A stretch of DNA of 64,000 bases from Candidatus Poribacteria bacterium. GTDB taxonomy: Bacteria > Poribacteria > WGA-4E > PCPOR2b. Position 1 is the first letter of the stretch. Each line of letters starts with the position of its first letter. The notes below the pieces were generated by a model that was not told where the DNA came from, ran no database searches, and was given only the letters and a program-made list of their open reading frames with translations. Location of the stretch: assembly GCA_965222435.1 (NCBI GenBank), contig OZ244950.1, positions 1,707,273 to 1,771,272 of the forward strand. Direction: 5' to 3'. Positions 2,266 to 37,893 of this stretch are shown piece after piece. Made by a program: the position numbers and the translations under genes.

Positions 2266-3084
2266 ATGAAAGATACCGAAGCCGTTACCCTTACCCCCGC
2301 ACAACGGCTGCATTTCGACATCTACGGTTTTGTACTATTGGAAAACGTCTTGACCCCCGATGAAGTGGCTCGCATGAAGGACGCGCTCCATCGAATGAAA
2401 GCCGATCCGGACCTCGAGTCCAAGCGGGTCTACACCCATCAGCGTGGTGAACACCATGTCCTGCTGGGCAATCTGGTGGAGTATGACCCTGCCCTGCTGG
2501 AATATGCCGCCCATCCCAAACTGGTGCCGCTCGTTGAGGAGGTAGTCGGTGGCAAGGTGCGCCTTGAGGAGACTGAGGCGATTATCAACCGCAGAGATCC
2601 GGAAGCGGATATCGAGGAACTTCACAAACGACGCTATAACCCCACCGGATTGCATCGTGGGACACAGCACGGCTGGGGAACTTACATCGAACAGAGCAAA
2701 TTTCACTGTATCTTCGTTAAGACGCTGACCTATCTCACTGATGTGGGACCCGACGACGGGGGCACCTGCTTTATCCCCGGCAGCCACCGGCTCACTTGGG
2801 ATAGGGAAGAGATGATCGAAGCCGCCCTCTCTGATGACAACCTGATCTATCAGGTAGAGGCAACCGCTGGCTCGACCTTGCTCTTTCCGGAGTCACTCAT
2901 CCACAGCACGACCGCCATCCGCAGCGACAAGGAACGCACAATCCTAGTCGCTGGCTATACGCCGCCGATGGTGCGCGAATGGCCCGGAAACGAGATCAGC
3001 CCTGAGTTCGTCGAAACCCTACCCGAAGATATTAAGCCGCTTATCTCCGGAAGCGATAGCTGGCGTTGGGAAAGACGGTATTGA
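2266..3084 (+). CDS. phytanoyl-CoA dioxygenase (PhyH) family Fe(II)/2-oxoglutarate oxygenase
   Basis: 272 aa; LTDVGPDDGGTCFIPGSHRL and later HSTTA motifs typical of PhyH-like dioxygenases. Confidence 0.7.
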   Translation: MKDTEAVTLTPAQRLHFDIYGFVLLENVLTPDEVARMKDALHRMKADPDLESKRVYTHQRGEHHVLLGNLVEYDPALLEYAAHPKLVPLVEEVVGGKVRLEETEAIINRRDPEADIEELHKRRYNPTGLHRGTQHGWGTYIEQSKFHCIFVKTLTYLTDVGPDDGGTCFIPGSHRLTWDREEMIEAALSDDNLIYQVEATAGSTLLFPESLIHSTTAIRSDKERTILVAGYTPPMVREWPGNEISPEFVETLPEDIKPLISGSDSWRWERRY

Positions 3085-3125: not shown

Positions 3126-3434
3126 ATGCCAAACGTTAAAATGTATACAACTGGTTTTTGCCCATACTGTTACAAGGCAAAAGATATCCTTGACAGTAAG
3201 GGAATCGAATTTGAAGAAATCAACATTCAGGGAAAGCCCGGGATGCGCGATGAAATCGAAAAGCTAACGGGGCGCCGCGATGTACCGCAAATCTTTATTG
3301 ACGACCAACACATCGGCGATGATGATGATTTAGCCGAACTCGCAGAATCGGGGAAACTGAATGAAATTTTCAACATAGAAGGAGAAACAGATGGCAGAGA
3401 TAAAAAACGGAAGCGATGGTTTGGAAGAGCGTAA
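3126..3434 (+). CDS. glutaredoxin
   Basis: 102 aa; CPYC active site near N-terminus (YTTGFCPYCYKAKDIL), RDVPQIFIDDQHIGD motif. Confidence 0.75.
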   Translation: MPNVKMYTTGFCPYCYKAKDILDSKGIEFEEINIQGKPGMRDEIEKLTGRRDVPQIFIDDQHIGDDDDLAELAESGKLNEIFNIEGETDGRDKKRKRWFGRA

Positions 3435-4359
3435 TATCGTCATTATCGGTGGCGGCACGGCGGGTTTCGCCGCAGGGGTCTACACCTCACGGGCAATGCT
3501 GGAGCCGCTGCTCATCACCGGAGACGCACTCGGTGGGCAACTCTCACTGACGCTTGATCTTGAGAATTATCCGGGCTTCTTCGGGACCGAGGCCGCAGAA
3601 TTTATCACAGGGATGCAGAAACAAGCCGAGCGTTTTGGGACAGAGGTAAAGTTTGACATGGTAACGGAAGTGGACTTCAATCGCCACCCGTTCTACCTGA
3701 AGACCTATGACCAAGAGTACCTCGCCAAATCGGTTATTATTTGTACCGGTGCCTCCCCACGGACACTCAATATCCCCGGCGAGGAAGGGTACGGCGGACG
3801 TGGCGTCTCCTACTGCGCTACCTGCGATGGATTCTTTTTCCAGAACCAACGCCTCATCGTTGTCGGTGGCGGCGACGCCGCCCTTGAGGAGGGGATATTT
3901 CTGACAAAGTATGCGTCGGAGGTCTATGTCGTTCACCGCCGAGATCAGCTTCGCGCCAGCCAAATTATGCAGGAACGTGCCTTCAAGAACGATAAAATCA
4001 AGTTCATCTGGGATACGGTTGTCGAAGAGATCCAAGGGGACGACGAAAAGGTTACCGGTGCGCTGCTCAGAAACGTGAAGACCGACGAAAAGCAGGTGTT
4101 TCCGATTGATGGTGTATTTATCTTTATCGGACATATCCCGAACACCGATCTATTCAAAGGTGTGATCGACATGGATGAACAGGAGTACATCGTGGTGGAC
4201 AAACTCCAACGCACCAATATCGACGGTGTTTTTGCAGCAGGTGATGTACATGACCATATCTTCCGTCAAGCGATCACAGCGGCGGGTGCCGGTGCCGCGG
4301 CGGCTATCTCATCGGAGAAGTTCATCGCTGAATTGGAGAACCGCGCCTATCCGGGATAG
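3391..4359 (+). CDS. trxB: thioredoxin-disulfide reductase
   Basis: IVIIGGGTAGFAAG FAD-binding motif and CATCDGFFF redox-active disulfide motif; start uncertain (overlaps glutaredoxin 3' end, a TTG at about 3421 is an alternative). Confidence 0.8.
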   Translation: MAEIKNGSDGLEERNIVIIGGGTAGFAAGVYTSRAMLEPLLITGDALGGQLSLTLDLENYPGFFGTEAAEFITGMQKQAERFGTEVKFDMVTEVDFNRHPFYLKTYDQEYLAKSVIICTGASPRTLNIPGEEGYGGRGVSYCATCDGFFFQNQRLIVVGGGDAALEEGIFLTKYASEVYVVHRRDQLRASQIMQERAFKNDKIKFIWDTVVEEIQGDDEKVTGALLRNVKTDEKQVFPIDGVFIFIGHIPNTDLFKGVIDMDEQEYIVVDKLQRTNIDGVFAAGDVHDHIFRQAITAAGAGAAAAISSEKFIAELENRAYPG

Positions 4360-4413: not shown

Positions 4414-5979
4414 ATGAAGGGAAAGAAAAAATCGTTACGGTTGGGGCGTGTCTTGTGCACTCTCCTTATGGCGTCGTTGATTCTCCTACTCTGCGGAATA
4501 CCGGTGGCAAATGCACAAACGTCCCAGCAAATCGCCAAAAAAGCACTAGCAGCGACGGTGCTCTTAGTCATGGAAGACGCTAATAGCCGGCCGCTTTCAA
4601 TCGGTAGTGGATTCTTCGTGCAACCCAACCAGATTGTAACCAACTTTGACGTTATCGAAGGTGCCGTTAAGGGCTACGCAAAACGCGTGGGTGAAAAAAC
4701 GAAACGCGACATTGAAGGTGTCACCGGATTTGACGAGCAAGGGACTCTGGTTATACTAAAGGTGTCGGGCTCTGATGTTCAGCCGCTTCCCCTAGGCGAT
4801 AGTAACAAGGTTGGGATTGGTGAGACCGTTTATGTCGCGAGCAATCCAAAAGGAGATTTGGAAGGCACATTCTCGAAGGGCCTTATTAGTGGACTTCAAG
4901 GGGATTCAACCAACAAACAACTCCAGATGACGGTTCTGATTTATCCAGCGAGTAGTGGAGGTCCCGTGCTAAACGGAATGGGTGAAGTGATAGGTGTTTC
5001 GGTGGCAACCTTCCGCAGAGGGCAGAATCTTAGTTTTGCCATTCCTTCAAACGATCTCACAGCACTCGCCGCTACAGTTGGCCCCGCGATACCGTTGTCG
5101 AAATGGCAACAACTTATGTCTTCCGCTATAGGCAATTTGAAGGGGATTTTTAGCGATTATAAGGGTGCTATCGCTGACTTGGACACTGCTATCCGACTTG
5201 ACCCTGATAATTTCTTTGCTTACTTTAACCGGGGAGTTGCCAAGGGTGAGTTGGGTGATTATAAGGGTGCCATCGTTGATTTTGATACCGCTATCCGACT
5301 CAAACCCGATTATGCCGCTGCCTACTTTAATCGGGGAACTATCAAAGTAAAATTAGGACAACACTTCGCCGCTATCGCCGACTATGATACTGCTATCCGA
5401 CTTAAACCCGATTATGCCAAAGCCTACGATAGTCGGGGGACTGCCAAGGCAGCATTAGGACAACATTTCGCCGCTATCACCGACTATGATACTGCTATCC
5501 GACTCAAACCCGATGGTGTCATTGCCTACTTTAATCGGGGAACTACCAAGGCAGAATTAGGACAACACTTCGCCGCCATCGCCGACTATGATACTGCCAT
5601 CCGACTCAAATCCGATTATGCCGCTGCCTACGGTAATCGGGGGATTGTCAAGGCAGAATTAGGACAACACTTCGCCGCTATCACCGACTATGATATTGCC
5701 ATCCGGCTTAAACCTGATAATGTCATTAACTACCTTAATCGAGGAAATGCGAAGGCAGAATTAGGACAATATTCCGATGCTATCACTGACTACGATACCG
5801 TCATCCGACTCAAATCCGATTTTGCCAAAGCCTATTATAATCGGGGATTGGCAAAGTACGGCTTGAGTCGGTCCATGGAGGCAAAGCAAGATTTTCAAAC
5901 GGCATTGAAACATGCGGATCAGGCTGGCGATGCGCTTCTCAAAACCCAAATTGAGTCGGCGATTCGAGACCTCCACTAG
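4414..5979 (+). CDS. secreted trypsin-like serine protease with C-terminal TPR repeats
   Basis: N-terminal signal peptide; S1-like motifs (GSGFFV, PASSGGPVLN); about seven consecutive 34-aa TPR units (AIADYDTAIRLKPDYAAAYFNRG...). Confidence 0.65.
   Translation: MKGKKKSLRLGRVLCTLLMASLILLLCGIPVANAQTSQQIAKKALAATVLLVMEDANSRPLSIGSGFFVQPNQIVTNFDVIEGAVKGYAKRVGEKTKRDIEGVTGFDEQGTLVILKVSGSDVQPLPLGDSNKVGIGETVYVASNPKGDLEGTFSKGLISGLQGDSTNKQLQMTVLIYPASSGGPVLNGMGEVIGVSVATFRRGQNLSFAIPSNDLTALAATVGPAIPLSKWQQLMSSAIGNLKGIFSDYKGAIADLDTAIRLDPDNFFAYFNRGVAKGELGDYKGAIVDFDTAIRLKPDYAAAYFNRGTIKVKLGQHFAAIADYDTAIRLKPDYAKAYDSRGTAKAALGQHFAAITDYDTAIRLKPDGVIAYFNRGTTKAELGQHFAAIADYDTAIRLKSDYAAAYGNRGIVKAELGQHFAAITDYDIAIRLKPDNVINYLNRGNAKAELGQYSDAITDYDTVIRLKSDFAKAYYNRGLAKYGLSRSMEAKQDFQTALKHADQAGDALLKTQIESAIRDLH
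5150..5870 (+). repeat. tandem ~102-bp repeats encoding TPR units
   Basis: Near-identical 102-nt units visible at nucleotide level (gctatccgactcaaacccgat... recurring), in-frame within the protease gene. Confidence 0.6.
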
Positions 5980-8381: not shown

Positions 8382-9143
8382 ATGGATTGGCAAAAGGATT
8401 CACAACAACTCAAAGATGCCTTTGACCGAGATGGATTTGTGGTCATTCCCGGTTTCTACACCCCGGAAGAGACAGCGGCGTTAAACGCTCATATTGATCG
8501 GTTCATTGCGGAGACGTTGCCCGGATTGCCGTCGGACGCAGCCTTTTACGAAGCCAAGGGGCAGACCGAAAGCATTATGCGGTTACAGGGCATGGCGTCT
8601 TACGACAGCCATTTCAAGGAACTTACCGAGAGCGATCGGTTTGCCAAGCTGGCGGAATTGCTGCTAGACGATGGGGTTATAAGTAAAAATATGGAGTGGT
8701 TCACGAAACCCGCCCGCAGCGGTGCAGAGACGCCACCCCATCAAGATGGGTTCTACTTCATGCTCGAACCAAACGAGGCACTGACGTTGTGGCTGGCATT
8801 GGATACGGTGAATGATGAGAACGGCTGTATCCACTATGCACGGGGTTCTCACCGCCGAGGCATGAGACCCCACCGACAGACAGCCGTGTTCGGGTTCTCC
8901 CTAGGAGTTACGGACTACGACGAAGCGGATTATCAAGAGGAAGCAGCCATCCATGCCGCGCCGGGCGATATGATCGTGCATCACTGCATGACGATTCATC
9001 GCGCAGGTTCCAACCCCACCACGAACCCGCGCCGGGCACTGGGGCTTGTCTATTATGCTCAACGTGCTAAGGCGGATGCAGAACGTCAGGCGGCGTACAA
9101 GAAAGAGCTAATGGAACTATGGGAAAAAGAGGGGAAACTTTAG
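8382..9143 (+). CDS. phytanoyl-CoA dioxygenase family protein
   Basis: 253 aa; PhyH-like pattern (FVVIPGFYTPEE, HQDGFYF, IHYARGSHR, HHCMTIHRAGSN). Confidence 0.7.
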   Translation: MDWQKDSQQLKDAFDRDGFVVIPGFYTPEETAALNAHIDRFIAETLPGLPSDAAFYEAKGQTESIMRLQGMASYDSHFKELTESDRFAKLAELLLDDGVISKNMEWFTKPARSGAETPPHQDGFYFMLEPNEALTLWLALDTVNDENGCIHYARGSHRRGMRPHRQTAVFGFSLGVTDYDEADYQEEAAIHAAPGDMIVHHCMTIHRAGSNPTTNPRRALGLVYYAQRAKADAERQAAYKKELMELWEKEGKL

Positions 9144-9199
9144 AGGTTAGGGCTTGTGCATTTCAGTTCCAAAAGTGAGGTCGGACGCAGACTTCGCTG

Positions 9200-9343
9200 A
9201 TTTTCGCAGATTGCTTTGAACCCCGATCTCATCGGGGAAAAACAGAAAGGCTCATATAAAAAGAAAGTGCAAAATGCGAAGCGAAATTGTAGGGGCGGGG
9301 TCTCCCCGCCCGTAGTACGGGTTGGGGGACCCAACCCCTACAA
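9200..9343. repeat. composite intergenic repeat block (hairpin repeat + GTAG-flanked palindromes, REP/BIME-like)
   Basis: ttgctttgaaccccgatctcatcgggg at 9200..9226; gtagg-ggcgggg...ccccgcc-cgtag followed by gggttggg-gga-cccaaccc-ctac; homologous copies elsewhere in window. Confidence 0.5.
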
Positions 9344-9401
9344 AAACTCGGTTTCTGTTGCACGATTTCTTAACACGAGCGACCATTAATAGGAGTGAGC
9401 G

Positions 9402-10178
9402 ATGCTGACCGATGCACAACTCTACCATTTCGCTGTTCACGGTTGGGTACTCCAAGAGGACGTATTCAGTCCTGAAGAGGTCGATGCCTTCAAGTGCGGA
9501 CTTGATCAACTCTATGAAAGAAAAGTCTCGACAATGAAGGACTCCGAAGACATCAAGAACATCAACAACATGGTGAACTACGACCCAATCTATCGGGATT
9601 GGATGATGTCGCCGAAAATCCTCCCCGTTCTGAAGCAGCTCTTGGGAACACCACCCCGTTTTGAGTGCTGTCACGCGATGATAAAATCCCCACACCCCGA
9701 CCGGACGAAACGGCGCGATGAACTTCGGGATACGGAAAAGATGGGGTGGCATCGCGGCATTCGACCAAAATATGGTATCGTGCCGGCGAACAACCATCCC
9801 TACATCAACACAACCTTCCTCAACAACGCCACCTACCTGACGGACGTTGATCCTGAACATGGCGGCACAATGATCCTAGACGGCTCACACCGAATCGAGG
9901 CGAAGGATTGGAAAGAAATTTTCGATCCCGCGATGGTCGTTCAGATTGAAGCAAAGGCGGGATCGGTGATGCACTTCACGGAGGCGTTGGTTCATACCGG
10001 TGTCCCGATCCTCTCCGAGCAAACTCGCTATACGATGTTCTACGGTTTCACTCCGCCGTGGATGCAGTGTTGGCCCGGATGTAGCCCGACACAGGAAGTC
10101 ATTGACGCCAGCGAAGGGGAACTCAAGGAAATCCTCGGAGGACGCACGGGATATATGGGACAGTACGGACCTGAGTGA
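9402..10178 (+). CDS. phytanoyl-CoA dioxygenase family protein
   Basis: 258 aa; LTDVDPEHGGTMILDGSHR and FTEALVHTG motifs. Confidence 0.7.
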   Translation: MLTDAQLYHFAVHGWVLQEDVFSPEEVDAFKCGLDQLYERKVSTMKDSEDIKNINNMVNYDPIYRDWMMSPKILPVLKQLLGTPPRFECCHAMIKSPHPDRTKRRDELRDTEKMGWHRGIRPKYGIVPANNHPYINTTFLNNATYLTDVDPEHGGTMILDGSHRIEAKDWKEIFDPAMVVQIEAKAGSVMHFTEALVHTGVPILSEQTRYTMFYGFTPPWMQCWPGCSPTQEVIDASEGELKEILGGRTGYMGQYGPE

Positions 10179-10233
10179 GTAGAACCCTACGAACCCAAAA
10201 TCTGAATCCCTTGTGAGAAGGAGGGTATATTCA

Positions 10234-11040
10234 ATGCTATCCGATTTGGAAGTTGGACAATTTTGGACATTCGGGTTCACTGTCTTGAGAGGCTGCCTGA
10301 GCGAAAAAGAGGTAGACCGTCTACAGGAAACACACAATCGCGTCATTGCAGACGCACCGGTCTACAACTATTTCGCCGAGAACGGCACCCGGATGCTGAG
10401 CCCTTTCGTCCAAGCGGACGATGAATTCGCAGAGTTAATCGAGCATCCCGGTGTGATGGAAGCCATGCGCGATATCTGGGGGACAGAGTGTCTCTATATT
10501 GCCGGCAGCGATATGTGGGCGAACCGAGATGACACCCCTTGGCACACCGACGGTCAGCCGGGGCGACAGAACGTCACGCTCAAGACCGCCATATACCTCG
10601 ATGAGCAGTCCAAAGATCTGGGATCGTTGAACCTGATTCCCGGCAGCCACCATCCTGAATACTCTGCAGCACTCTTCCGATCCTGCGGTTACTGGGATAG
10701 GGGAAGACCCCGCCTGCGCCTCGATCCCCATGCAATTCCGGGAGTTCTCTCCGTCCAGACCTGTCCCGGAGATGTTGTGTTGTGGGACAATCGCCTGTGG
10801 CACTCCGCCTTCAAACGCAAGGACGGTCGTCCCCGGCGGACGATGTTTATCGGCTATATACCGGACCCCCAAGATGACCTGCTCGCGATCAAAGACCTTC
10901 GTACGACGATTGAAACTCAATCAACTGAGCAGCAGCCGTTCGTCTATAGCAAGGAGATGATGGAAAAGGGTTGTCCTAGGCGCGAGAAGATGGCGGTACG
11001 GCTAGAGGAATTGGGCGTGGAAAAGGTGAGAGAAACATAA
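10234..11040 (+). CDS. phytanoyl-CoA dioxygenase family protein
   Basis: PhyH-like (LNLIPGSHH, VVLWDNRLWHSAF); start set at internal ATG preceded by aggagg. Confidence 0.65.
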   Translation: MLSDLEVGQFWTFGFTVLRGCLSEKEVDRLQETHNRVIADAPVYNYFAENGTRMLSPFVQADDEFAELIEHPGVMEAMRDIWGTECLYIAGSDMWANRDDTPWHTDGQPGRQNVTLKTAIYLDEQSKDLGSLNLIPGSHHPEYSAALFRSCGYWDRGRPRLRLDPHAIPGVLSVQTCPGDVVLWDNRLWHSAFKRKDGRPRRTMFIGYIPDPQDDLLAIKDLRTTIETQSTEQQPFVYSKEMMEKGCPRREKMAVRLEELGVEKVRET

Positions 11041-12198: not shown

Positions 12199-12423
12199 GG
12201 TTGGGTTGAACGACATTCATAAAACATACTTAAATCGCTCCTCTTGGATTGCGGAAATCTATTCAACTTGAAATCTCACAAATTCTAGTGAAACCCAACT
12301 CTTGATACATGGATTAGATGTTGGGTTTCACTGTATCTATTTATAAAACAGTGTTATCGAAAGACTAAACCACGATCGTCATTGATAGCGATGCGCTTTG
12401 AACAGTTCAACCCAACCTACAGC
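12199..12423. repeat. MITE-like element with 16-bp terminal inverted repeats
   Basis: gtaggttgggttgaac at 12199..12214 and its reverse complement gttcaacccaacctac at 12408..12423 flank an AT-rich core with an inner inverted repeat (agtgaaacccaac / gttgggtttcact). Confidence 0.35.
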
Positions 12424-12438
12424 CAACACTGTGCGGAA

Positions 12439-12470
12439 GAAACCGAGTTTTGAAGAAAAAACTCGGTTTC
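12439..12470. terminator. palindromic hairpin gaaaccgagtttt-gaag-aaaaaactcggtttc between convergent genes
   Basis: Perfect 13-bp stem; lies between the 3' ends of the + strand oxidoreductase and the - strand redoxin gene; same family as 8254 and 33510. Confidence 0.45.
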
Positions 12471-12512
12471 AGGGCAAATAACTTTACCCAAAATGGCTTT
12501 TCAAACAGGTTC

Positions 12513-13070
12513 TTAGAGAAACGCTTTCTCTCTCGATTCCTCCGAGACATCCCACGCACGGTCATATTCATAGTCGTCCCGACGCGCTAACAGTGCCCGC
12601 AGATCGTGTCGCAGTTCCTCCACGGTGGGTCTTCCAACAAACCACCAACCGTTGTAAATCTTGTAGATCTCCCGGTCCGCGTTAAGGACGAAAGTATAGG
12701 GGATAGGAATCGGCGAGTGGCGGGCGTCCGTGTTGTCTACAATGTCCAATTCATTGATCAATGCCCGGTCAAGGTCAATCAGGAAGGGCCACGTCGCGCC
12801 GATACGTTCACGAAGCGCCCTCGTTGTTTCCTGATCATCAACTGAGACAGCAATTAGCCTACAGTAGTTGACTTCTAGTTCGGGCTGCAAATCTTTTGCG
12901 TAATTCTCCAACTGGAGAACATCCTTCGGTCAATATGCCCCACGCCAGAAGACCAAGACCGTGGGCCAACCACGCATCAAATCCTCCAGCGTTCTGACCA
13001 TGCCATCTTGATCGGGACGTTCAAAGTTCGGGAATATGTTGCCCGGTATCAAATCTTCACGGATCTTCAT
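12513..13070 (-). CDS. thioredoxin-fold redoxin (peroxiredoxin-like) with in-frame TGA: candidate selenoprotein
   Basis: ATG at 13070..13068 preceded by aggagg (5-nt spacer); reading frame is continuous with listed ORF 12513..12911 except for one TGA at 12932..12930; translation ...TVLVFWRGAY-U-PKDVLQLENYAKDLQ... places TGA at the expected redox-Cys position. Confidence 0.6.
12904..12919 (-). promoter_or_regulatory. candidate bacterial SECIS hairpin
   Basis: uucucc-AGUU-ggagaa hairpin beginning 14 nt after the in-frame UGA, apical loop contains GU. Confidence 0.4.
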
Positions 13071-13146
13071 TGTAACCTCCTGCCTTACGAAACCACATGT
13101 ATAGGACTTATCAGTTCACCCAACCAATGAACTCATAATGAACTTC

Positions 13147-13170
13147 TCACGCATTACGTATCACGTTTTA
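13147..13170 (-). repeat. 7-nt-periodic stop-codon motif at gene end (TAA-TGA-TAA-TGA)
   Basis: Minus-strand stops at 13170, 13163, 13156, 13149, covering all three frames. Confidence 0.4.
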
Positions 13171-14346
13171 CGAGGCTTGTACCTCTTCCCATCGCTCCGT
13201 CTCCCATGAGCGTTCAATCGCGCCCAACACCTTAGCCACAGCCAACGCCTCACGAAAAGCAGGCTCACCTTGGTGTCCATCTCGGATCGACTTCAAGAAT
13301 TGATAGGCTTCGATCATCTTCAAATCTTCGTAGCCTAAACCGACACCGGGGCCGGGATTGAAATGTGCATGAAACGGGTGTTCGGGACCACTCACGATGC
13401 GAGTGTAACCATTAGGCGCACCATCGTTGTCAGAAAGAAACAGATGGAGTTCATTCATACGCTCAAAGTCCCAGTGTACCGCGCCGCGCGTACCGTGCAC
13501 CTCAAACGCCATCTGACACTCGGGACCATTTATGACACGGCACCCTTCCAGTGTGCCATGCGCCCCATTAGAAAATTGCACCAATGCACCGACATAATCT
13601 TCGTTGGTGACTTCGCCTATTGGACCATCTGTGCGGACAGAAAAATGCGTACCTTCGCCGGGGGTAGCAAGCGGACGTTCTGAGAAGAAAGTCTCGCGGT
13701 TGCCCACCAAACGGTTGATCGGACCGGCTATCATCTGCGCCATATCAACGACATGCGACATCAGATCGCCCAAAGTACCTAGACCCGCCACCTCACGCTG
13801 AAAACGCCACGACAGCACAGCGTGCGGATTGCTAGCGTAACCCGCAAAGAAACGCCCTCGATAGTGTGTGAGCCTGCCGAGACACCCTTCCTCAATCAGC
13901 TGCCGGGCGTACTGCACAAGCGGTGTCCATCGGTAATTATAGCCCACACAGGTCAAAACGCCAGCCCGTCGAGCGGCATCTTCGATCGCAGCGGTCTCTT
14001 GTGGATTTCGACCAACAGGTTTCTCACAGAAGATATGCTTCCCCGCTTCGGCAGCCGCTCTCGCAATTTCGAGGTGCATATTGTTTGGCGCGGTGATGTT
14101 GACGAGCTCCACCTCCGGATCAGCAATAACCTGTCTCCAATCCGTAGCGTATCTTTCAAAGCCTAAAAACGTCTGTGCTTCACGGGCACGGGCTTCCACC
14201 TCATCGGCGCAGATGACCAAGCGCGGCTGAATGTCACAGTCCTGAAAGCGGATCGGAATCTGTCGGTAGGAGCGGCTGTGCACAGTTCCCATCCACCCCA
14301 TACCGATAACACCGATGCCTATCGTTCGTGCCATAGCTGACCTCAA
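13168..14346 (-). CDS. Gfo/Idh/MocA family oxidoreductase
   Basis: N-terminal [16 protein letters not shown] Rossmann motif; 392 aa. Confidence 0.75.
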
Positions 14347-25202: not shown

Positions 25203-27143
25203 CTATTTTAGAATGACCATCTTGCGCATTGCATAAAAATGGTCTGCTTGTAACTGGTAAAAATAAACGCCACTTGCGACTGATTCCCCGCTTTCGTTGT
25301 GCCCATCCCAATACGCTGCGCTTGTCCTATCTGTGTAGTAGCCCGGCTGCTGATACCCAAAATCTAACTGACGCACCACTACGCCTTGAGGGTCGTAAAT
25401 GGTCAGCGTCACATCGGCAGCGTGGGCAAGGTGATAGGGAATCCATGTCTCTGGGTTGAATGGATTGGGATAGTTTGCAAGCAGTACAGTTTTGTGGGGT
25501 ATAAAGGGCAGAGAAACGTCCTGTAAGGCAGCGCGCAGTTGGTTGAGATTGGCAATACCTTGCCGGAAAGCGAACGAACCATCATCTGCGGCGTGCGCCA
25601 TATCAATCCACTTTTGAATCGTTGCGGGGTCAATCCCGAACGTTTGCCATGCAAGCCCGCCGGGAGCCAAGGGGGTCGTTGCGCCCCCCAAGTGTTGAGC
25701 AACGGTGATGAGGTCAAAAATATTAACTATTCCATCGTTGTTGACATCCGCTTGGGGGTGGGCTTGACCAAAGTTTTGGCCCACCAGAACCAGATCCAAG
25801 ATATTTACCAGCCCATCCCCATTGAGATCATAATCCGATTCAACGACAATCTCAAGGGCGTGAATCCCGATATCAATCTCCTGATCGAAAAGTGTACGGA
25901 AGTCGACGTTGTGGAGGCTTAACTCCCCTTTTCCAGCCGCCCTTGCTTGAAAGGTTACTGACAGCAGTACATCACTGATCTGGAAGCAGTCCGCACCCAA
26001 CTCCATATTAACGCCGGTGATTCTGCCTGCCGCGTTGTCAATAATGCCCTCTTGAAAGACAGATTGGCTGCATCCATTATCGAGAGAAATATAGGTGCCT
26101 TCATCGACTTGAAGCGCGACAAGTACGCCGGGTGTGAACGCAATATCAAGTTCCCAACCCTCTAAAAGCAGAAAACCATCCAGATGGAGATTGAGTTTAA
26201 ATATCTCCCCAACACGAACTTGATCGATCAAGGGAAAGAAAAGGTGTGTACTTCCCACCCGAACCCCTCGATCCGAAAGGGCTGGAATATGTGTGTTGAT
26301 GGAGATGTCGCTTAGCGGGTTATCATCTACAACAACCTTATCTCCACGATCAAGCCCCATGTTTGCTACCAAGGGTGACAGATCCGATATTCCGTTGTTT
26401 TCAAGCCATAGCTCTTTCAGATTGGTCAAGCCCACCAAAGTCGATATATCCGCGAGACCATTGTGATTAAGATTCAAATCTGTCAAGTTCGTTAAAGCTG
26501 CTAAAGGCGATATATCTGTGATCGCATTATAGCCAAGATATAGGTCTTTCAGATTGGTCAAGTCCGCTAAAGGTGATATATCCGTGATGGCGTTGAAGCC
26601 GAGACTCAGATTTGTCAGGTTTGTCAAGCCTGCCAATACCGATATGTCAGTGAGCGCATTGTCAATAAGATATAAGTATGTTAGGTTTGTCAAGCCCATC
26701 AACGCTGATATGTCTGCGATAGGGTTGGAGCCAAGCCATAGGTCTGTTAGATTGGTCAAGCCCGCCAAAGGCGATATATCTGTAATGGTGTTGGAACCAA
26801 GATGTAGATCTGTCAGGCTCGTTAAGGTTGCCAAAGGCGCGATGTCCGATATCGCATTATCAGAAAGAAACAGCGTGTCTAGGTTGGTTGCGGACTCAAG
26901 TCCGGTCAAATTGCGGATTTGAGAGTTAAACCCGAAGATATAGGTCAAACTCTCCATCTCCGCCACAGTAATTGTAGCACCGGATGCCTTGCCAAGTTCT
27001 TCCTCCACCAAAGCGCGGAGGTTGGGGTCGGGTATATCAACGATTTGGGCAGATACCAAGTCCACTCCTATTATTGTAACGGAACAGACTATTGATATTG
27101 CTATTATAATGATTCTCATTTGAAATTTTCTGATCCTATTCAC
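25203..27143 (-). CDS. secreted leucine-rich-repeat protein with dockerin-like repeats and T9SS-type C-terminal sorting domain
   Basis: Signal peptide; at least 8 LRR units of 22 aa (LxxLTNLTxLxLxxNxIxDISPLA); two dockerin-like DxNxDGxVN repeats; C-terminal YPNPFNPET...GVYFYQL...KMVILK tail. Confidence 0.65.
   Translation of the reverse strand: MNRIRKFQMRIIIIAISIVCSVTIIGVDLVSAQIVDIPDPNLRALVEEELGKASGATITVAEMESLTYIFGFNSQIRNLTGLESATNLDTLFLSDNAISDIAPLATLTSLTDLHLGSNTITDISPLAGLTNLTDLWLGSNPIADISALMGLTNLTYLYLIDNALTDISVLAGLTNLTNLSLGFNAITDISPLADLTNLKDLYLGYNAITDISPLAALTNLTDLNLNHNGLADISTLVGLTNLKELWLENNGISDLSPLVANMGLDRGDKVVVDDNPLSDISINTHIPALSDRGVRVGSTHLFFPLIDQVRVGEIFKLNLHLDGFLLLEGWELDIAFTPGVLVALQVDEGTYISLDNGCSQSVFQEGIIDNAAGRITGVNMELGADCFQISDVLLSVTFQARAAGKGELSLHNVDFRTLFDQEIDIGIHALEIVVESDYDLNGDGLVNILDLVLVGQNFGQAHPQADVNNDGIVNIFDLITVAQHLGGATTPLAPGGLAWQTFGIDPATIQKWIDMAHAADDGSFAFRQGIANLNQLRAALQDVSLPFIPHKTVLLANYPNPFNPETWIPYHLAHAADVTLTIYDPQGVVVRQLDFGYQQPGYYTDRTSAAYWDGHNESGESVASGVYFYQLQADHFYAMRKMVILK
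26380..26900 (-). repeat. tandem 66-bp LRR-coding repeats
   Basis: Repeated units visible at nucleotide level within the LRR gene. Confidence 0.5.
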
Positions 27144-28391: not shown

Positions 28392-28415
28392 TCACGTTTC
28401 ACGTTTTATATTTCA
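28392..28415 (-). repeat. 7-nt-periodic ACGTGAA heptamers at carB stop
   Basis: Minus-strand TGA at 28401 (stop) and 28394, with a third CGTGAA unit 14 nt upstream inside the coding region. Confidence 0.35.
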
Positions 28416-31400
28416 CGTAATAATCTTGTAACGGGGTCACAGTAATCTCGCCACGGCGGAGCGCATCAATGCCATTGATTGCCGCTGATGCACCGGCGAT
28501 CGTAGAAAATAGGGTAATTCCGTAATCAATTGCCATCTGCCGAATTAATTCCTCATTTGGACGATGCGCATACCCGGTAGGTGTATTGATAATCAGATCG
28601 ACGGCATTGTTTTTGACGTAATCGTGGATGGTCGGGCGCCCTTTGCCGATACTATGAACCAGCGTCACCTCCATGCCGTTACGACGAAGGACCTTCGCTG
28701 TACCGTGCGTGGCGATCAGTTGAAATCCCAGATCAACTAGCTTTTTGGCGATAAAGATAATTGCGCGCTTATCCTTATTTTTTACGCTGATGAACGCATG
28801 ACCACCGAGAGGTAGTCCATAACCGACCGCCTGTTGCGCCTTGGCAAAAGCGATACTCAGGTCAGCATCAATCCCCATCACCTCGCCTGTTGATTTCATC
28901 TCAGGACCGAGTTGGGAATTTGCCCCCGGGAAGCGATTGAACGGAAACACCGGTGCTTTCACCGAAAAATAATCCGGCTCAATCTGCCTCGTAAATCCAA
29001 GTTCTTCAAGAGTCCTTCCCGTCATGATGCGGGCGGCGAGTTTTGCCAACGGCACTCCTATCGTCTTGCTCACAAACGGCACGGTGCGCGACGCACGCGG
29101 GTTGACCTCCAACACATAAATCTCATCGTTCTTTATCGCATACTGTATATTCATCAACCCGCGCACGTTGAGTGCCTTTGCCAGCGCGTCAGTATACTCC
29201 TTGAGCGTATCGATCTGCTCCTCAACAAGCGTGTAAGGCGGCAGCACACAATCGCTATCTCCAGAGTGGATACCTGCCTCCTCGATATGTTCCATGATCC
29301 CGCCGACGACGGTGAGGTGCCCGTCGGAAATCGCATCAACATCAACTTCGATGGCATCCTCCAAATACTTGTCGATTAACACGGGATGTTCGGGTGAGGC
29401 TGCGACCGCCGAATCCATATATGCTTCCAGATCATCTTGGTCATAGACAATCCGCATTGCCCGTCCCCCCAAAACGTACGAAGGACGCACCATAACCGGG
29501 TATCCAAGTGCCGCGGCAATCGGCGTGGCTTCCTTGAGCGAAGTTGCCGTGCCATTTGGGGGCTGCATTAAGCCAAGTCCGTCGAGCAACTCTGTAAACT
29601 GCTTCCGATCCTCCGATCTTGCAATGTCCTCTGGGCTTGTCCCTATAATTGGAACACCCGCCTTCTGGAGTCCAAGCGCGAGATTCAAGGGTGTCTGTCC
29701 ACCAAGCTGCACGATAACCCCGTTCGGTTTCTCCCGATCAACGATGTTCAACACATTTTCGTGCGTGAGCGGTTCAAAGTAGAGCCGATCTGAGGTATCG
29801 TAATCCGTGCTCACAGTTTCGGGATTGCTATTGACCATAATGGTCTCATAGTTATCCTCTTTAAGTGCGAGTGCCGCGTGAACACAACAGTAATCGAACT
29901 CAATGCCTTGACCTATCCGATTCGGACCGCTACCTAAAATCAAGATTTTCCTCTTCTCGCTAGGTCTGACCTCATCCTCCATGCCGTAGGTAGAATAGTA
30001 GTAAGGCGTCTCCGCTTCAAACTCCGCAGCACAGGTATCCACCGTCTTAAACGTGGCTTCAATTCCGTGCTCCTTCCGCAGCGCTCGGATACTTGCCTCA
30101 GAAGCGTTCCAAAGTTCCCCTATCTGAGGGTCTGAGAAGCCATACTGCTTTGCTTTACGGAGCAGGGAAACAGACGAATCAGGCAGCTGAGAAATATCCA
30201 GCGTGTCTAGTTTACTTTCGTTTCCGACTTTCCGAATTTCTTCCTCAAAATCGACAATCTCCTTTATATTATACAGGAAAAATGGATCGATGTGTGTATA
30301 TCCGTGAATCTGATCTATATTCATTCCGCTTTGGAAAGCTTGTTTTATATAAAGGACGCGCTCCATATTGGGAATGGTCAACTTCTGTGGAAGTTCCGAG
30401 ACAGGCAATTTCTGGATGGAACGGCTGTCGAGTCCCATCCAACCGTTTTCTAAGGATCTCAACCCCTTCTGCAAGGATTCCTTGAACGTCCGTCCGATTG
30501 CCATCGCCTCACCCACGGACTTCATCATCGTCGTTAGCGTCTCATCGGTGCCGGCGAATTTCTCAAATGCCCAACGCGGAATCTTTGTCACAACGTAATC
30601 AATGGTCGGTTCAAACGACGCAGGGGTTTTGCGCGTAATATCATTGGGAAGCTCGTCGAGGGTGTATCCGACAGCTAGCTTCGCTGCGATCTTTGCTATC
30701 GGAAATCCTGTCGCTTTCGAGGCGAGTGCAGAACTCCGAGAGACCCGCGGGTTCATTTCAATCACAACCTGTTTCCCTGTATCGGGATCGACCGCAAACT
30801 GGATATTTGAACCGCCGGTGTCCACACCAATTTCACGAATAATCTTAATCGCTGCATCCCGCATCTGTTGATACTCTTTGTCCGTCAAGGTCTGGGCGGG
30901 CGCAACCGTAATACTGTCGCCGGTGTGAACCCCCATCGGATCGAAATTCTCAATGGAACAGATAATCACGACGTTATCTGTTCTATCCCGCATTACCTCA
31001 AGCTCAAATTCTTTCCAGCCAATCACCGACTCCTCAATTAGCACCTCGTTGACCGGACTCAACCCCAATCCGTACTCGACCATCTCCCGGAATTCTTCGA
31101 TATTGTAAGCAATGCCTCCGCCGGTGCCACCGAGTGTGAACGCGGGCCGAATAATCGCTGGATAACCGATCTCCTCAACGATAGCAATCGCATCGTCATA
31201 CGAATGGGCAATGCCGCTTTTTGGCACCGCCAAGCCAATCCGCTCCATCGCCTTCTTGAATAGGCCTCGATCCTCCGCTTTTTGGATAGCGGGAAGTTTC
31301 GCGCCAATCAACTCAACCTCGTACTTATCCAACACACCCGATTCAGCAAGCTCAACAGAGACATTCAACCCTGTCTGTCCACCCAAAGTTGGGAGTAGGG

Positions 31401-31653
31401 CTTGGGGACGTTCCTGAGCAATAATTCGTTCGGCGATATCCGCATTAATCGGTTCAACATAGGTGCGGTCTGCAAGCTCCGTGTCCGTCATAATTGTTGC
31501 CGGATTGCTGTTGACAAGGACAACCTCATACCCCTCCTCCTTCAAGGATTTACACGCCTGAGTGCCCGAATAGTCAAACTCGCAGGCTTGACCGATAATA
31601 ATCGGGCCGGAGCCGATAATTAGGATCTTTTTGATGTCAGTTCGCTTTGGCAT
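28399..31653 (-). CDS. carB: carbamoyl-phosphate synthase large subunit
   Basis: [36 protein letters not shown]-terminus, duplicated ATP-grasp halves, C-terminal MGS-like domain; start set to internal ATG 31653. Confidence 0.9.
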
Positions 31654-31770
31654 GGTAAATAACCTTATCGTATTGTTATCGGGACAGAATTTAACGCAAA
31701 GGCGCGAAGGTACAAGGATTTTTCTCTTCTTTTCCCTGCACCTCATTACGGCATTGCGTTGTTTTCTTTC

Positions 31771-31787
31771 TCACGTTTCACGCATCA
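31771..31787 (-). repeat. three tandem heptamers giving TGA in all three frames at carA stop
   Basis: Minus-strand acgtgat-gcgtgaa-acgtgag; TGA at 31787, 31780, 31773. Confidence 0.4.
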
Positions 31788-32963
31788 CGTCTTACTCATC
31801 AGATCCGTGAACCTCTTAAAAAGATACCTTGCGTCATGGGGACCGGGAGACGCCTCCGGATGATACTGCACAGCAAAGATCGGATATTCTCTGTGCTCCA
31901 TCCCTTCAAGGGTTTGATCGTTCAAGTTGATATGCGTCACCTTTACATTGTTTGGCAGTGAGTCAATGTCCACGCAGAAACCGTGATTTTGTGAGGTAAT
32001 TTCGACCTGATCTGTGTCGAATCGTTTAACAGGCTGATTTGCGCCGCGATGCCCGAATTTGAGTTTGAAAGTCTTTCCGCCAAATGCAAGTCCCAACAGT
32101 TGATGCCCCAAACAGATACCAAAGATTGGCTTCACCCCAATCAACTGCTGAATCGTCTTGATGCCGTATTCAATCGGTTCCGGATCGCCGGGACCGTTGG
32201 ATAAGAAGATACCATCTGGGTTCGCGGCAAGAATATCTTCTGCAGAAGTGTGTGCTGGCACCACTTGAACCTGACAACCGTGTTGGGTAAGCTGGCGTAA
32301 GATATTATATTTAACCCCGAAATCCACTGCAATAACTCGGAACTGGGGAGTTGACGGTGCCTCAATCCCTGTTGTGTCAAAGTCGATCGTGAGTTGGGAA
32401 TCTTTAGCATCGGCGGTGGGGCTCAACTCAGAGAGAGCGTCTGATTCGGGGTCGCGTGTCTCCCATAAGTACGGATTCGGGCATGTCACGTACTGAACCA
32501 TATCTACACCAACCAACCCGTGCCACGCCTGCGCTTTGGCAACCAAGCTTTGGGGGTCAAGATCTTCCGTCGAAAGTATTCCATTCATGACGCCATGTAC
32601 TCTGAGCCGTTTGGTCAATGCGCGTGTGTCAATACCGTGGATGCCGATCATCCCATTTTCTTCGAGGTAGCGGCTGAGATTGGACTGTGAACGCCAGTTG
32701 CTCTCGTATGCACTATATTCACGCACAACAAATCCTTCGGCTTGCGGTCGAATTGATTCGACATCGATTTCGTTGCAGCCGTAGTTTCCGATTAGCGGGT
32801 AGGTCATCGTGACGATCTGCCCCTTGTAGGATGGATCGGTGAGAATCTCTTGGTAGCCGGTCATACTGGTGTTGAAAACCACCTCACCGGAGGTTTCCCC
32901 GGTCGCGCCGAAATGTTCGCCTTCAAAGATTGTTCCATCCGCTAATGCGAGAATTGCTTTCAT
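31785..32963 (-). CDS. carA: carbamoyl-phosphate synthase small subunit
   Basis: MKAILALADGTIFEGEHFGA N-terminus and glutamine amidotransferase domain (GICLGHQLL, catalytic Cys). Confidence 0.9.
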   Translation of the reverse strand: MKAILALADGTIFEGEHFGATGETSGEVVFNTSMTGYQEILTDPSYKGQIVTMTYPLIGNYGCNEIDVESIRPQAEGFVVREYSAYESNWRSQSNLSRYLEENGMIGIHGIDTRALTKRLRVHGVMNGILSTEDLDPQSLVAKAQAWHGLVGVDMVQYVTCPNPYLWETRDPESDALSELSPTADAKDSQLTIDFDTTGIEAPSTPQFRVIAVDFGVKYNILRQLTQHGCQVQVVPAHTSAEDILAANPDGIFLSNGPGDPEPIEYGIKTIQQLIGVKPIFGICLGHQLLGLAFGGKTFKLKFGHRGANQPVKRFDTDQVEITSQNHGFCVDIDSLPNNVKVTHINLNDQTLEGMEHREYPIFAVQYHPEASPGPHDARYLFKRFTDLMSKT

Positions 32964-33133
32964 TGGGCTAGTTGTCCTTATTCTCAACAGGTTTGAATAT
33001 TATTCGTCTCTCGCTCTGCCTGAACTCGAAGTCAAACGTGATGGGTAAATGGTCAGGGGTTCATTGGTGCATTGGCTCACTAGTACATTAATGAACTTAT
33101 GAACTCAATATCCTCACCAACTCGCACCAAAGA

Positions 33134-33424
33134 TTATACAGGTTCCCACAGATCTTCTCTGAGGCTTCGTAGACGTAACGTGCGAATACGCACCTGCTTG
33201 ACCTGCCGAGGAACAAGAAAAAGCGTCATCTTTCCGTCATGAGTTGATGGAGAGGAAGCAGCTAGCTCTTCTCGTTTACGCTTCGCCGCTGTAAAGTCTT
33301 CTGCTACGCCTACAATCTGGGTATCGTTCAAAATGATAACTACCTTGCCCTCATACCGCTTGGGACGCTTATAGATTTTTTGGAGCCATTGTTGTGTTTG
33401 CCGTTTTTTCATGTGTCGCATCAC
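33134..33424 (-). CDS. hypothetical small protein
   Basis: 96-aa basic ORF downstream of the methyltransferase gene. Confidence 0.3.
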   Translation of the reverse strand: MMRHMKKRQTQQWLQKIYKRPKRYEGKVVIILNDTQIVGVAEDFTAAKRKREELAASSPSTHDGKMTLFLVPRQVKQVRIRTLRLRSLREDLWEPV

Positions 33425-33490
33425 CCTCTCAAGGAATAAACGGTTTTGCTATATGGGATATATCTCTCGCCCTTAATCAAGTTGGCTAAT

Positions 33491-33541
33491 GTTAAGAAAT
33501 CGTGCAACAGAAACCGAGTTTTCAAGAAAAAACTCGGTTTC
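33491..33541 (-). terminator. palindromic hairpin plus conserved flanking motif
   Basis: gaaaccgagtttt-caag-aaaaaactcggtttc at 33510..33541 preceded by gttaagaaatcgtgcaacag, the reverse complement of the motif upstream of the PhyH gene at 9402. Confidence 0.4.
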
Positions 33542-33564
33542 TTTTATAGATAGCAACTAGGTCA

Positions 33565-35187
33565 TCATGCCTCTATTTCAAGTTGCTGGCTTTGGGGGGC
33601 TGCCCGTTCTGCCCTGCGGAATGTGACATCAATAGGCGTCTGTGGATATTCAATACCGTGTCCCGCAAGCAGTTCCTCAATCGTCCGAATCTGAATCTTT
33701 GGATATGTCGTGTGAGTGACGTGAAGCCATTGAAAACGCCCTGCTGTCGCTGCTTCCTTGAGCATCGGTTGGGTCGGCGGATTCAGCGTGATAAAGACAC
33801 CAATCACAGCGTCTTGGGTTTCAACAACCGATTTCAGTTCCCGTATGTCCCTAACAGAAACCTTCCCACTTTTAACCTGAACGACAATCTTCCGGGTCAG
33901 CGTCTTTTTCGGCTTATCTGGATCAACATCCTGATAATAGATCATCCCGTCCACACCCTCGTCTGCCCCCTTCTTTTTCCCCTGATACGGTCTCGCCCGA
34001 ATCAGGCTTAACGCCCACCACTGGAATTGATACCGATCTTGAACCGCTAAAGCCTTCGCGCTCTCTGCATCTTTCGGCTCACCGATAACTTCGTATTTCA
34101 CACCGTCACCAAAGGCATCGGCAAGGCGGTACTTCAATAAAGCGATGGCAAGATGTGTGATGTCAACCCCAATCCACCGGCGGTTAAACTGTTGAGCAAC
34201 AGCGACAGCCGTCCCACAACCACAAAACGCGTCCAATACAACATCGCCTTCGTTACTACTCGCTTTGATAATCCGCTCAAGCAATGCTTCAGGCTTTTGG
34301 GTGGGATATCTGAGACGCTCTTTCGCTTGAGAGTTTATAGGTGGTATATCAACCCAAACATCCTGCATAGGAACACCGGGCATCTCATCTAAAAATTGTT
34401 TCAATCTAGGTGTACCATAGCGAGTATAGTATAGTTTGCCGGATTCATGGTATTCCTGCATAGTGCTATACGGACAGCGCCAAATCTTAGTTATTCCATT
34501 CCACTCATACTCATATCCTCCTCCACTCAAAGAGCCTGCCGTTAAATCCCTGTCTAAAAATCTTCTGCCATTTTCATCAGTATGTTTATAATACTTCTCA
34601 ATGTACCCATCAGAATATGGTAGATACTGTTCATTATGAGTGAAAGAATTACTTATTGAATAGTAAAGTATAATGTCATGTACGTTCCCATATACGGCAG
34701 AATCATTATGGGCTGCGGTTCGTCTCCAAGTAATCTCATTCCTGAAATTTTTAACGCCAAAAATCTGATCCAAGATAATCTTCAGATAATGCGACGCCGT
34801 CGGATCACAATGGAGATAAAAGCTCCCTGTCGGTTTCAGGACACGGTGGAGTTCCACCAATCGCAACCCCATCATCACGAGGTACGCCATCAGATTGTTT
34901 TCACCGAGGATTCCGCGAAAACTCTTGATTGTCTCAACCAGAAGGGGTGGCGCGGTCTCGACCAGCTCATAATATGCCTGCTCAGTGGTTTCGACCCAAT
35001 GCCATGTATCCTCAAAGGCTTGGATCTGTGCCTGCGACGATGAGCCATCCCTTTCGCTGAAAATCACGTTGTACGCTTGATTCGAGTTAAATGGCGGATC
35101 GATGTAAATGAGATCGACGCTTTCGTCGGGGATGTGGGCCCGCAAAATGTCTAGATTGTCACCATAGTAGAGTTGATTCATATCCAT
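33565..35187 (-). CDS. DNA methyltransferase (N6-adenine/N4-cytosine type) fused to a C-terminal Mrr-like PD-(D/E)xK nuclease domain
   Basis: Motif IV DPPF (LIYIDPPFNS) before motif I (VVLDAFCGCGTAVAVA), i.e. beta-class order; C-terminal GADEGVDGMIYY...VVQVKSGK...GVFITL resembles the Mrr catalytic domain. Confidence 0.6.
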   Translation of the reverse strand: MDMNQLYYGDNLDILRAHIPDESVDLIYIDPPFNSNQAYNVIFSERDGSSSQAQIQAFEDTWHWVETTEQAYYELVETAPPLLVETIKSFRGILGENNLMAYLVMMGLRLVELHRVLKPTGSFYLHCDPTASHYLKIILDQIFGVKNFRNEITWRRTAAHNDSAVYGNVHDIILYYSISNSFTHNEQYLPYSDGYIEKYYKHTDENGRRFLDRDLTAGSLSGGGYEYEWNGITKIWRCPYSTMQEYHESGKLYYTRYGTPRLKQFLDEMPGVPMQDVWVDIPPINSQAKERLRYPTQKPEALLERIIKASSNEGDVVLDAFCGCGTAVAVAQQFNRRWIGVDITHLAIALLKYRLADAFGDGVKYEVIGEPKDAESAKALAVQDRYQFQWWALSLIRARPYQGKKKGADEGVDGMIYYQDVDPDKPKKTLTRKIVVQVKSGKVSVRDIRELKSVVETQDAVIGVFITLNPPTQPMLKEAATAGRFQWLHVTHTTYPKIQIRTIEELLAGHGIEYPQTPIDVTFRRAERAAPQSQQLEIEA

Positions 35188-35190
35188 CGG

Positions 35191-37869: not shown

Positions 37870-37893
37870 AATCTTTCCTCGCACCAACACTCC

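Follow-up and report, generated by a model that had tools for sequence, protein, structure and literature searches.

Selenocysteine (Sec)-containing peroxiredoxin (Prx)-like and thioredoxin (Trx)-like proteins have been known since 2004-2008. The Global Ocean Sampling (GOS) catalogue lists a family named "Prx-like 1", with a pfam00578 domain, the redox motif UxxC, in which U is Sec, and 225 sequences from marine metagenomes (Zhang & Gladyshev 2008, PMC2398784), and a 2026 review records a "Prx-like thiol:disulfide oxidoreductase, PF00578, UxxC/UxxU" (PMC13188914). Here, we describe a gene on the minus strand, at 12513..13070, of a 64,000-nucleotide stretch of DNA from a Candidatus Poribacteria bacterium (GenBank assembly GCA_965222435.1, contig OZ244950.1, positions 1,707,273 to 1,771,272 of the forward strand), which was analysed as a whole and is called the window below. 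The gene contains an in-frame TGA at codon 47 that very probably encodes Sec, which would make it a genuine selenoprotein gene for 185 residues with an AhpC/TSA (PrxQ-like) fold. A first-pass annotation, made from the sequence, had proposed a candidate selenoprotein missed by open reading frame (ORF) calling, and the Cys column of the homologs, the recurrence of the TGA and a downstream hairpin all agree with this.

Prx-like 1 and the window protein share the pfam00578 domain, and in both Sec is the first residue of the redox motif, preceded by R-G-x-[WY] and followed by Pro. The flanking peptides in GOS are F-I-R-G-A-W-U-P-K-C-S-L-Q-L-E-G-Y and F-Y-R-G-H-W-U-P-Y-C-R-R-Q-L, and two Sec-encoding relatives of the window gene (L008 and L019) read F-Y-R-G-V-W-U-P-K-C-V-L-Q-L-E-N-Y. 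The peptide Q-L-E, the codons of which form the loop and 3′ arm of the hairpin in the window family, is also common to both families. However, the identity to the window protein is 32%, covers the N-terminal 91 residues only (E = 7e-10), and the C-terminal signatures of the window family (PYTFVL, YKIYNGWW and GRPTVEELR) had no match in the GOS selenoprotein dataset that was searched. Furthermore, Prx-like 1 carries a Cys at +3, whereas the window protein and most of its relatives have U-P-K-D instead, and 'UPKD' gave no match in the same dataset. Judged by sequence, Prx-like 1 is the closest catalogued family and a remote relative. The window protein may be regarded as a further Prx-like selenoprotein, arguably a new UxxD subfamily, decoded by the standard bacterial mechanism. 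In the searchable literature, there was neither a paper joining Poribacteria with a selenoprotein nor one on a UxxD Sec motif.

One reading frame across an in-frame TGA

Direct reading of the sequence established the gene structure: the minus-strand frame opens with ATG at 13070..13068, ends with TAA at 12515..12513 and holds a single internal in-frame stop, the TGA at 12932..12930. A Shine-Dalgarno sequence, AGGAGG, is present at 13076..13081 on the same strand, with a 5-nt spacer to the ATG. The ORF listing cuts this frame in two, giving a 46-aa ORF (12930..13070) and a 132-aa ORF started from TTG (12513..12911), and both would be replaced by one complete selenoprotein coding sequence (12513..13070, 185 codons with Sec at codon 47, plus TAA). 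The Shine-Dalgarno-led ATG at 13070, the frame shared with ORF 12513..12911 and the lone TGA had been described in the first-pass annotation, and re-reading returned the same elements and the same translation.

With the TGA read as Cys, the Pfam domain AhpC-TSA matched residues 10-136 (E = 1.3e-18) and the Redoxin domain matched with E = 5e-12. Since the AhpC-TSA match covers both sides of the TGA, the domain spans the stop. A homology search with the read-through protein, a check suggested together with the first-pass annotation, returned 715 homologs from about 5.8 billion proteins, and continuous Cys homologs that span the TGA position were found. With about 175-190 aa, the homologs at 55-62% identity are full length, and their residue in the column of the TGA is a Cys, within R-G-[HY]-[FY]-C-P-K-D; the homologs at 73-98% identity are nearly all "132-aa" entries that begin just past the TGA. 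The UGA proposed to be read as Sec (U47, 12930..12932 on the minus strand, motif R-G-A-Y-U-P-K-D) thus aligns with a Cys that is nearly invariant across 88 full-length homologs, which establishes the pairing of Sec with Cys at this column. An AlphaFold2 model of one full-length Cys homolog (P0017, 58% identity) showed a single Trx/Prx-fold domain, with a predicted local distance difference test score (pLDDT) of 91.2 and a predicted template modelling score (pTM) of 0.85. In this model, an N-terminal beta-hairpin (residues 15-25) and the central strand (residues 35-40), three strands in all, precede the redox residue, which caps helix 46-66. Going by the model, the catalytic residue would be missing from a 132-aa product, and with it the N-terminal beta-hairpin and the central strand.

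Relatives are annotated as if there were two genes, a 46-aa peptide ending at the TGA and a 132-aa protein translated from the TTG at 12911. Public databases hold many 132-aa entries, among them the NCBI annotation of one Poribacteria copy as a 132-aa "redoxin domain-containing protein", and the upstream 46-aa ORF was called in five of the relatives (L001-L005). However, the Pfam domain and the AlphaFold2 model require both pieces, as the N-terminal strands and the catalytic residue lie upstream of or at the TGA, and the Cys homologs are continuous. The TTG has no Shine-Dalgarno sequence and sits within the 3′ arm region of the hairpin, and every 132-aa product starts at the first start codon available past the TGA. 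Homologs starting naturally at the TTG/Leu position, which the first-pass annotation had named as the finding that would speak against it, were encountered only superficially: the DNA of the 132-aa entries contains the same 46 upstream codons and then the TGA, and those entries are therefore the same calling artefact. We consider two separate genes to be extremely improbable.

The conservation of the TGA was established from the DNA behind the shortened entries, which has a TGA at the same codon, after 46 conserved codons, in three ENA contigs of 5.3-6.4 Mb (L001-L003), in a Candidatus Poribacteria metagenome-assembled genome (MAG; L004/L005) and in two Logan contigs (L007 and L008). Two proteins, P0006 and P0007, are recorded at full length with a Trp at the Sec site and have TGA in their DNA, genetic code 4 evidently having been applied by the gene caller. 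In GTDB r220, scanned with one genome for each species, 78 loci were retrieved, and 52 distinct loci were compared for the hairpin, 28 with TGA and 24 with TGT or TGC. The TGA forms come from about 10 phyla and include all Poribacteria copies; the labels of the other TGA-form genomes are SAR324, Gemmatimonadetes, Chloroflexi/Anaerolineae/Ardenticatenia, Acidobacteria, Phycisphaera, KSB1, Neomarinimicrobiota, Rokuibacteriota and Nitrospirae. Copies in Poribacteria MAGs are 92% identical to the window gene, and so is the copy on the close complete Poribacteria chromosome OY282444.1 (L015). A gene with the same identity to that of the window was found on a 2.6-kb contig labelled Dehalococcoidia (L009, JAAXHR010000175.1); it groups with the Poribacteria copies on the tree, and the contig is probably misbinned. 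In alignments without indels, the dN/dS ratio of the upstream 46 codons was 0.09-0.2, indicating that the upstream piece is translated in this frame, and that of the downstream part was 0.05-0.08. On a rough neighbour-joining tree, the Sec and Cys forms are intermixed, indicating repeated exchange between Sec and Cys.

A TGA is one base away from TGT or TGC and could mark a pseudogene, or a sequencing or assembly error in an otherwise ordinary Cys redoxin gene; damaged relatives also exist, one with an IS630-type insertion (L006) and one with an extra TAG (L056). However, 28 distinct sequences, drawn from independent assemblies and about 10 phyla, share this TGA, purifying selection acts on both halves, and a covarying hairpin occurs mainly in the TGA forms. 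This conservation effectively refutes a pseudogene or an error, to which we assign next to no probability.

In L006:1..1665, on a Poribacteria-type contig (ENA ERZ24945681), the homology to the gene stops at a TA dinucleotide, 2 nt past the TGA codon, and upstream of the break an IS630-like transposase gene (HTH_23/29/32, 'APWLNPSE' motif) is present with its 3′ end. Either an insertion sequence (IS) has destroyed the selenoprotein gene here, or the contig is an assembly chimera. In L056, a Sec form labelled Chloroflexi, the extra in-frame TAG is at codon +105 after the TGA and replaces a nearly invariant Glu (G-R-P-T-V-E-*-I-R), marking either a pseudogene or a sequencing error. A different variation is seen at L087:2848..3963 (protein P0002; P0001 is similar), where an in-frame fusion joins the Sec domain (V-R-G-Y-Y-TGA-P-K-D-R-R-Q-L) to another copy of this domain, the site of which, H-S-P-Q-C, has Ser at the Sec position and Cys at +3, i.e. 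the Prx-like register. The database entry for P0002 begins past the TGA.

A conserved hairpin downstream of the TGA

A hairpin of the bacterial selenocysteine insertion sequence (SECIS) type, assigned by conservation and covariation, is located at 12903..12920 on the minus strand. It consists of G-UUCUCC (12920..12914), an AGUU tetraloop (12913..12910) and GGAGAA-U (12909..12903), which form a 7-bp stem of six Watson-Crick pairs and a closing G-U. The distance is 10 nt from the UGA to UUCUCC and 16 nt from the UGA to the loop. The 6-bp uucucc-AGUU-ggagaa hairpin with GU in its loop reported in the first-pass annotation is therefore present, but its start "14 nt after the UGA" has to be corrected, since 10 nt lie in between and the stem begins at nucleotide 14 when the U of UGA is counted as 1.

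The conservation and covariation of this element are established by comparison of the TGA and Cys forms. An AGUU loop at nucleotides 20-23 from the U of UGA was found in all 28 TGA forms and in 4 of the 24 Cys forms. The mean stem length was 6 bp and the mean minimum free energy (MFE) -9.4 kcal/mol in the TGA forms, compared to 1.7 bp and -3.4 kcal/mol in the Cys forms, 20 of which lack the hairpin. In the alignment of the 28 TGA sequences, pairing holds in 139 of 140 cells of the 5-bp core, and compensatory double changes occur at three core pairs (U-A to G-C in 13 sequences, C-G to U-A in 8, and U-A to G-C in 1). For the 7-bp stem, 86.7% of the cells are paired, a share that drops to 31-66% if the 3′ partner is shifted by 1-3 columns, and none of 500 shuffles reached the observed covariation score. 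RNAalifold independently returned the same 5-bp stem.

The compensatory changes recode the peptide, from Val-Leu-Gln-Leu-Glu (GUU CUC CAG UUG GAG) to Arg-Arg-Gln-Leu-Ala (CGU CGC CAG UUG GCG) or, in a second version, Arg-Arg-Gln-Leu-Thr (CGU CGU CAG UUG ACG). Because these changes also alter the protein, the pairing is not a by-product of amino acid conservation. The peptide RRQLT offers a control at synonymous sites: it is encoded by CGT CGT CAG TTG ACG in all 7 Sec forms that have it, versus 1 of 6 Cys forms. The lone exception among these six Cys forms, L032:3042..3090 (TGC; MAG RIFCSPLOWO2_12_FULL_62_13, labelled Betaproteobacteria), has kept the whole hairpin, UCGUC-AGUU-GACGA, and adjoins a Sec form on the tree, so that this hairpin looks like a fossil SECIS after a recent Sec-to-Cys conversion.

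The bSECISearch consensus, as summarised in PMC13188914, comprises an apical loop of 3-9 nt, an upper stem of 4-16 bp, a G within the first two nucleotides of the loop, a distance of 16-37 nt between UGA and loop, and an MFE of -7.5 kcal/mol or lower. The window hairpin has a 4-nt loop (AGUU), a stem of 7 bp of which 5 bp are conserved, a G at loop position 2 followed by U, a spacing of 16 nt and an MFE of -8.4 kcal/mol, in agreement with all four requirements of the published bSECIS model. Like the E. coli fdhF-type SECIS, it is a stem-loop directly 3′ of the UGA within the coding sequence, with G and then U in a small apical loop. The G23/U24 of the fdhF loop are only 2 nt further from the UGA than the G21/U22 of the window hairpin. 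In contrast to the fdhF type, the window hairpin is much shorter (5-7 bp), has neither a lower stem nor a bulged U and is unmatched in Rfam, and the AGUU tetraloop of the window family is invariant over about 10 phyla.

Predicted active site and proposed decoding of codon 47

In a profile alignment to ResA, the Sec column corresponds to the first Cys of W-C-P-H-C, in line with the N-terminal redox-Cys position given in the first-pass annotation and with the Cys of the full-length homologs. In a profile alignment to the PrxQ/BCP-type protein BCP 2cx3 (F-S-P-V-C-T-K-E), it corresponds to the Ser/Thr located three residues before the peroxidatic Cys, with which Asp50 aligns instead, and the invariant Pro124 (I-P-Y-T-F-V-L-D) aligns with the catalytic Arg of BCP. 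The Asp at +3 is present in 24 of the 28 Sec forms and nearly all Cys forms, and U-P-K-C was seen only in L007, L008, L019 and L079 among these Sec forms. Compared to the PrxQ/BCP peroxiredoxins, including the known Sec-containing Prx (PxxxTxxU), the register of the window protein is therefore shifted by three residues. The AhpC/TSA thioredoxin fold is shared with canonical peroxiredoxins (PxxxTxxC plus catalytic Arg), but the window protein has neither the peroxidatic Cys/Sec of T-x-x-C nor the catalytic Arg (R-x-x-F-I-x-D). A Prx scaffold without both Prx catalytic residues indicates a Prx-like redoxin and not a canonical peroxidase, and the term "peroxiredoxin-like" in the first-pass annotation thus holds for the fold and not for the active-site register, which is of the Trx type (U-x-x-D and not the T-x-x-C of Prx). 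Compared to the ResA/TlpA/DsbE type (W-C-x-x-C), the window protein has Sec for the first Cys and Asp for the second, is without a signal peptide or membrane anchor, and carries a long extra C-terminal helical extension. Its sequence identity to these proteins is about 20%, and the ResA model NF002854 scored 25.3 bits against a cut-off of 170. No NCBIfam model reached its cut-off, the SelL-related redox protein model NF040769 scoring 19.9 bits versus 120 and the WAxxUGC model NF041054 13.2 versus 300.

During translation of this gene, the downstream hairpin would recruit SelB, an elongation factor specific for Sec, with Sec-tRNA(Sec) at the UGA of codon 47, so that Sec is inserted instead of termination. 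Sec47 would be positioned at the N-terminus of helix alpha-1, where a Trx-type CxxC has its first, nucleophilic Cys, and could from there attack a disulfide, sulfenate or hydroperoxide as oxidised substrate. An external thiol, or possibly the nearly invariant Cys70, might then resolve the selenenylsulfide or selenenic acid so formed. As U-P-K-D has an Asp in place of the second Cys, a single-selenol mechanism is most likely, and going by its motif the protein is most likely a single-selenol (monothiol-type) thiol/disulfide or hydroperoxide reductase.

Read-through of the UGA could in principle also occur without Sec, by a near-cognate tRNA (Trp or Cys) or by a lineage-wide reassignment, with the hairpin acting as a generic stimulator. 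UGA-C is a weak termination context, which would facilitate this, and public gene callers give Trp under code 4 in several relatives. However, these Trp calls come from short contigs and apparently arise because the code-4 model gives a longer ORF. TGA terminates 9 of the 40 long ORFs in the window, thus it is an ordinary stop there and a global reassignment is excluded. In addition, the recoded position is always that of the catalytic Cys, both here and at two further sites in the window (see below), the hairpin, with G-U in its loop, conforms to the SECIS consensus of the SelB type, and SelA, SelB and SelD are present in the phylum. Read-through without Sec therefore seems very unlikely. SelA and SelB have been reported in most sponge-symbiont bins (Slaby et al. 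2017, PMC5649159), and in Table S4 of that study the Poribacteria bins bin44 and bin70 and the single-cell genome Ca. Poribacteria WGA-3G all have COG1921 (SelA), COG3276 (SelB) and COG0709 (SelD). An absence of Sec machinery, the other finding that the first-pass annotation had named as speaking against it, is thus not what these published genomes of the phylum show. The three recoded TGA sites in the window lend indirect support to the use of Sec by this organism.

Several points weigh against decoding as Sec and the function proposed above. The window itself, 64 kb in length, contains no selA, selB, selD or tRNA-Sec gene; ARAGORN found no tRNA in it, hence no tRNA-Sec, and none of 39 window ORFs matched SelA, SelB or SelD when scanned with Pfam. 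The support for Sec machinery is thus at the level of the phylum, by way of the COG table. The hairpin is very short, with a spacing at the lower limit of the allowed range, and when folded by itself it is not significant (z = -1.68, 14 of 200 shuffles being as good), so that its significance comes only from the comparison with the other loci. Rfam reported no SECIS family in the whole window at the gathering threshold, or in 12800..13000 at E <= 10, where only chance hits appeared and the hairpin was unmatched. SECIS prediction, another check put forward with the first-pass annotation, gave a conserved, covarying hairpin within the bSECIS consensus that corresponds to no Rfam model. The function is deduced from fold and motif alone, and the role of Cys70 as resolving residue is speculative, since this residue opens the strand that follows helix alpha-1 and is probably far from Sec47. 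Sec insertion, SelB binding, the chemistry and the substrate class are what we infer from sequence comparison. The remaining doubt over Sec at codon 47 stems from these points, as the evidence for Sec machinery is not from this genome and the claim is based on sequence.

Other features of the window and consequences for annotation

A 13-bp inverted repeat (GAAACCGAGUUUU / AAAACUCGGUUUC, 6-nt loop) is located at 12439..12470 on the minus strand, starting 43 nt past the stop codon of the selenoprotein gene. The transcript possibly ends here; the repeat lacks a T-run, and a promoter and terminator consensus scan of 12300..13300 gave no match and did not call the repeat as a terminator. The selenoprotein gene looks monocistronic. 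No conserved partner gene was found among the neighbourhoods of the window gene and L001-L006, and without such conservation the context gives no functional clue.

A second candidate selenoprotein gene, for a tandem PrxQ/BCP protein with two Sec residues, is present at 42096..43091 on the plus strand. Its predicted product has a signal-peptide-like N-terminus followed by two tandem PrxQ/BCP domains (AhpC-TSA E = 5e-71, in two stretches). The TGA codons are at the peroxidatic Cys of domain 1 (42324..42326, P-K-D-F-T-G-G-U) and of domain 2 (42777..42779, P-K-D-F-T-D-G-U), both on the plus strand, so that this candidate has the canonical P-K-D-F-T-x-G-U of the known Sec-containing Prx. No ORF of at least 150 aa is listed within this region. 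Relatives at 57-72% identity are recorded with a Trp at both sites, and the one relative that was checked in DNA (L088) has TGA at both. Each TGA of the candidate gene is followed by a conserved bulged hairpin, GCUC[A/G]CUC-CG[G/U]GAU-GAG-U-[U/C]GAG, and the two copies differ by a compensatory A-U to G-C change. The sequence predicts a secreted Prx in which each of the tandem domains carries a Sec, which is unusual. The window also contains a gene for a 322-aa thioredoxin reductase-like protein (3391..4359, plus strand; Pyr_redox_2 E = 4.9e-56), which could belong to a reducing system for the redoxins of the window.

A broader interpretation, which we offer tentatively and regard as possible but doubtful when its parts are taken together, would be that the C/U-P-K-D proteins with the YKIYNGWW...GRPTVEELR half form a distinct, uncatalogued redox family. 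This family would combine a PrxQ scaffold with a single nucleophile in the Trx register and an invariant Asp at the second Cys position, and would have its own chemistry and substrate compared to peroxiredoxins and CxxC oxidoreductases, with many switches between Sec and Cys in at least 10 phyla and one minimal AGUU SECIS. Together with the secreted two-Sec tandem PrxQ, it would be part of an undescribed selenoproteome of the Poribacteria symbionts, with a bearing on oxidative stress inside sponges.

Aside from the redoxins, the window holds an Rfam PyrR binding site at 38491..38618 on the minus strand (54.5 bits, gathering score 54). It lies upstream of genes for an HD-domain protein, a phosphoribosyltransferase (probably PyrR), a dihydroorotase-like amidohydrolase, and the small and large subunits of carbamoyl-phosphate synthase (28399..38472), which look like a pyrimidine operon. 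Eukaryote-like repeat proteins are encoded at 44061..46536 (plus strand), 25203..27143 (minus strand) and 4414..5979 (plus strand), comprising two adjacent ankyrin-repeat paralogs, a leucine-rich repeat (LRR) protein with dockerin and FlgD-Ig domains, and a trypsin-tetratricopeptide repeat (TPR) protein. There are also four PhyH dioxygenase genes (2266..3084 and 8382..11040) and two GFO/IDH/MocA genes. This content of ankyrin, LRR and TPR, PhyH and GFO/IDH/MocA genes is typical of sponge-symbiont Poribacteria and, together with the 92% identity of the selenoprotein gene to copies in Poribacteria MAGs, assigns the window to this phylum.

Sec recoding and the Prx-like class of selenoproteins are well established, so that current understanding is unchanged by this gene. 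What would change is its annotation, as the gene and its relatives are misannotated in public databases in three ways: as 132-aa fragments, as pairs of 46-aa and 132-aa proteins, and, under code 4, as Trp proteins. Trp calls of this last kind were seen in P0006, P0007 and P0121-P0134 and at the loci L007, L008 and L088, where the Sec TGA is rendered as Trp and the entries appear 'full-length' with W at the catalytic Cys. This code-4 artefact is systematic and could be mined for selenoproteins. The short, invariant AGUU hairpin, with its clean compensatory changes, is a compact natural minimal SECIS that could help SECIS prediction and engineered Sec insertion. A corrected annotation would add a widespread selenoprotein family, captured by no NCBIfam model, to the catalogue, and would show the use of selenium in several antioxidant-type proteins of Poribacteria, a major group of sponge symbionts.

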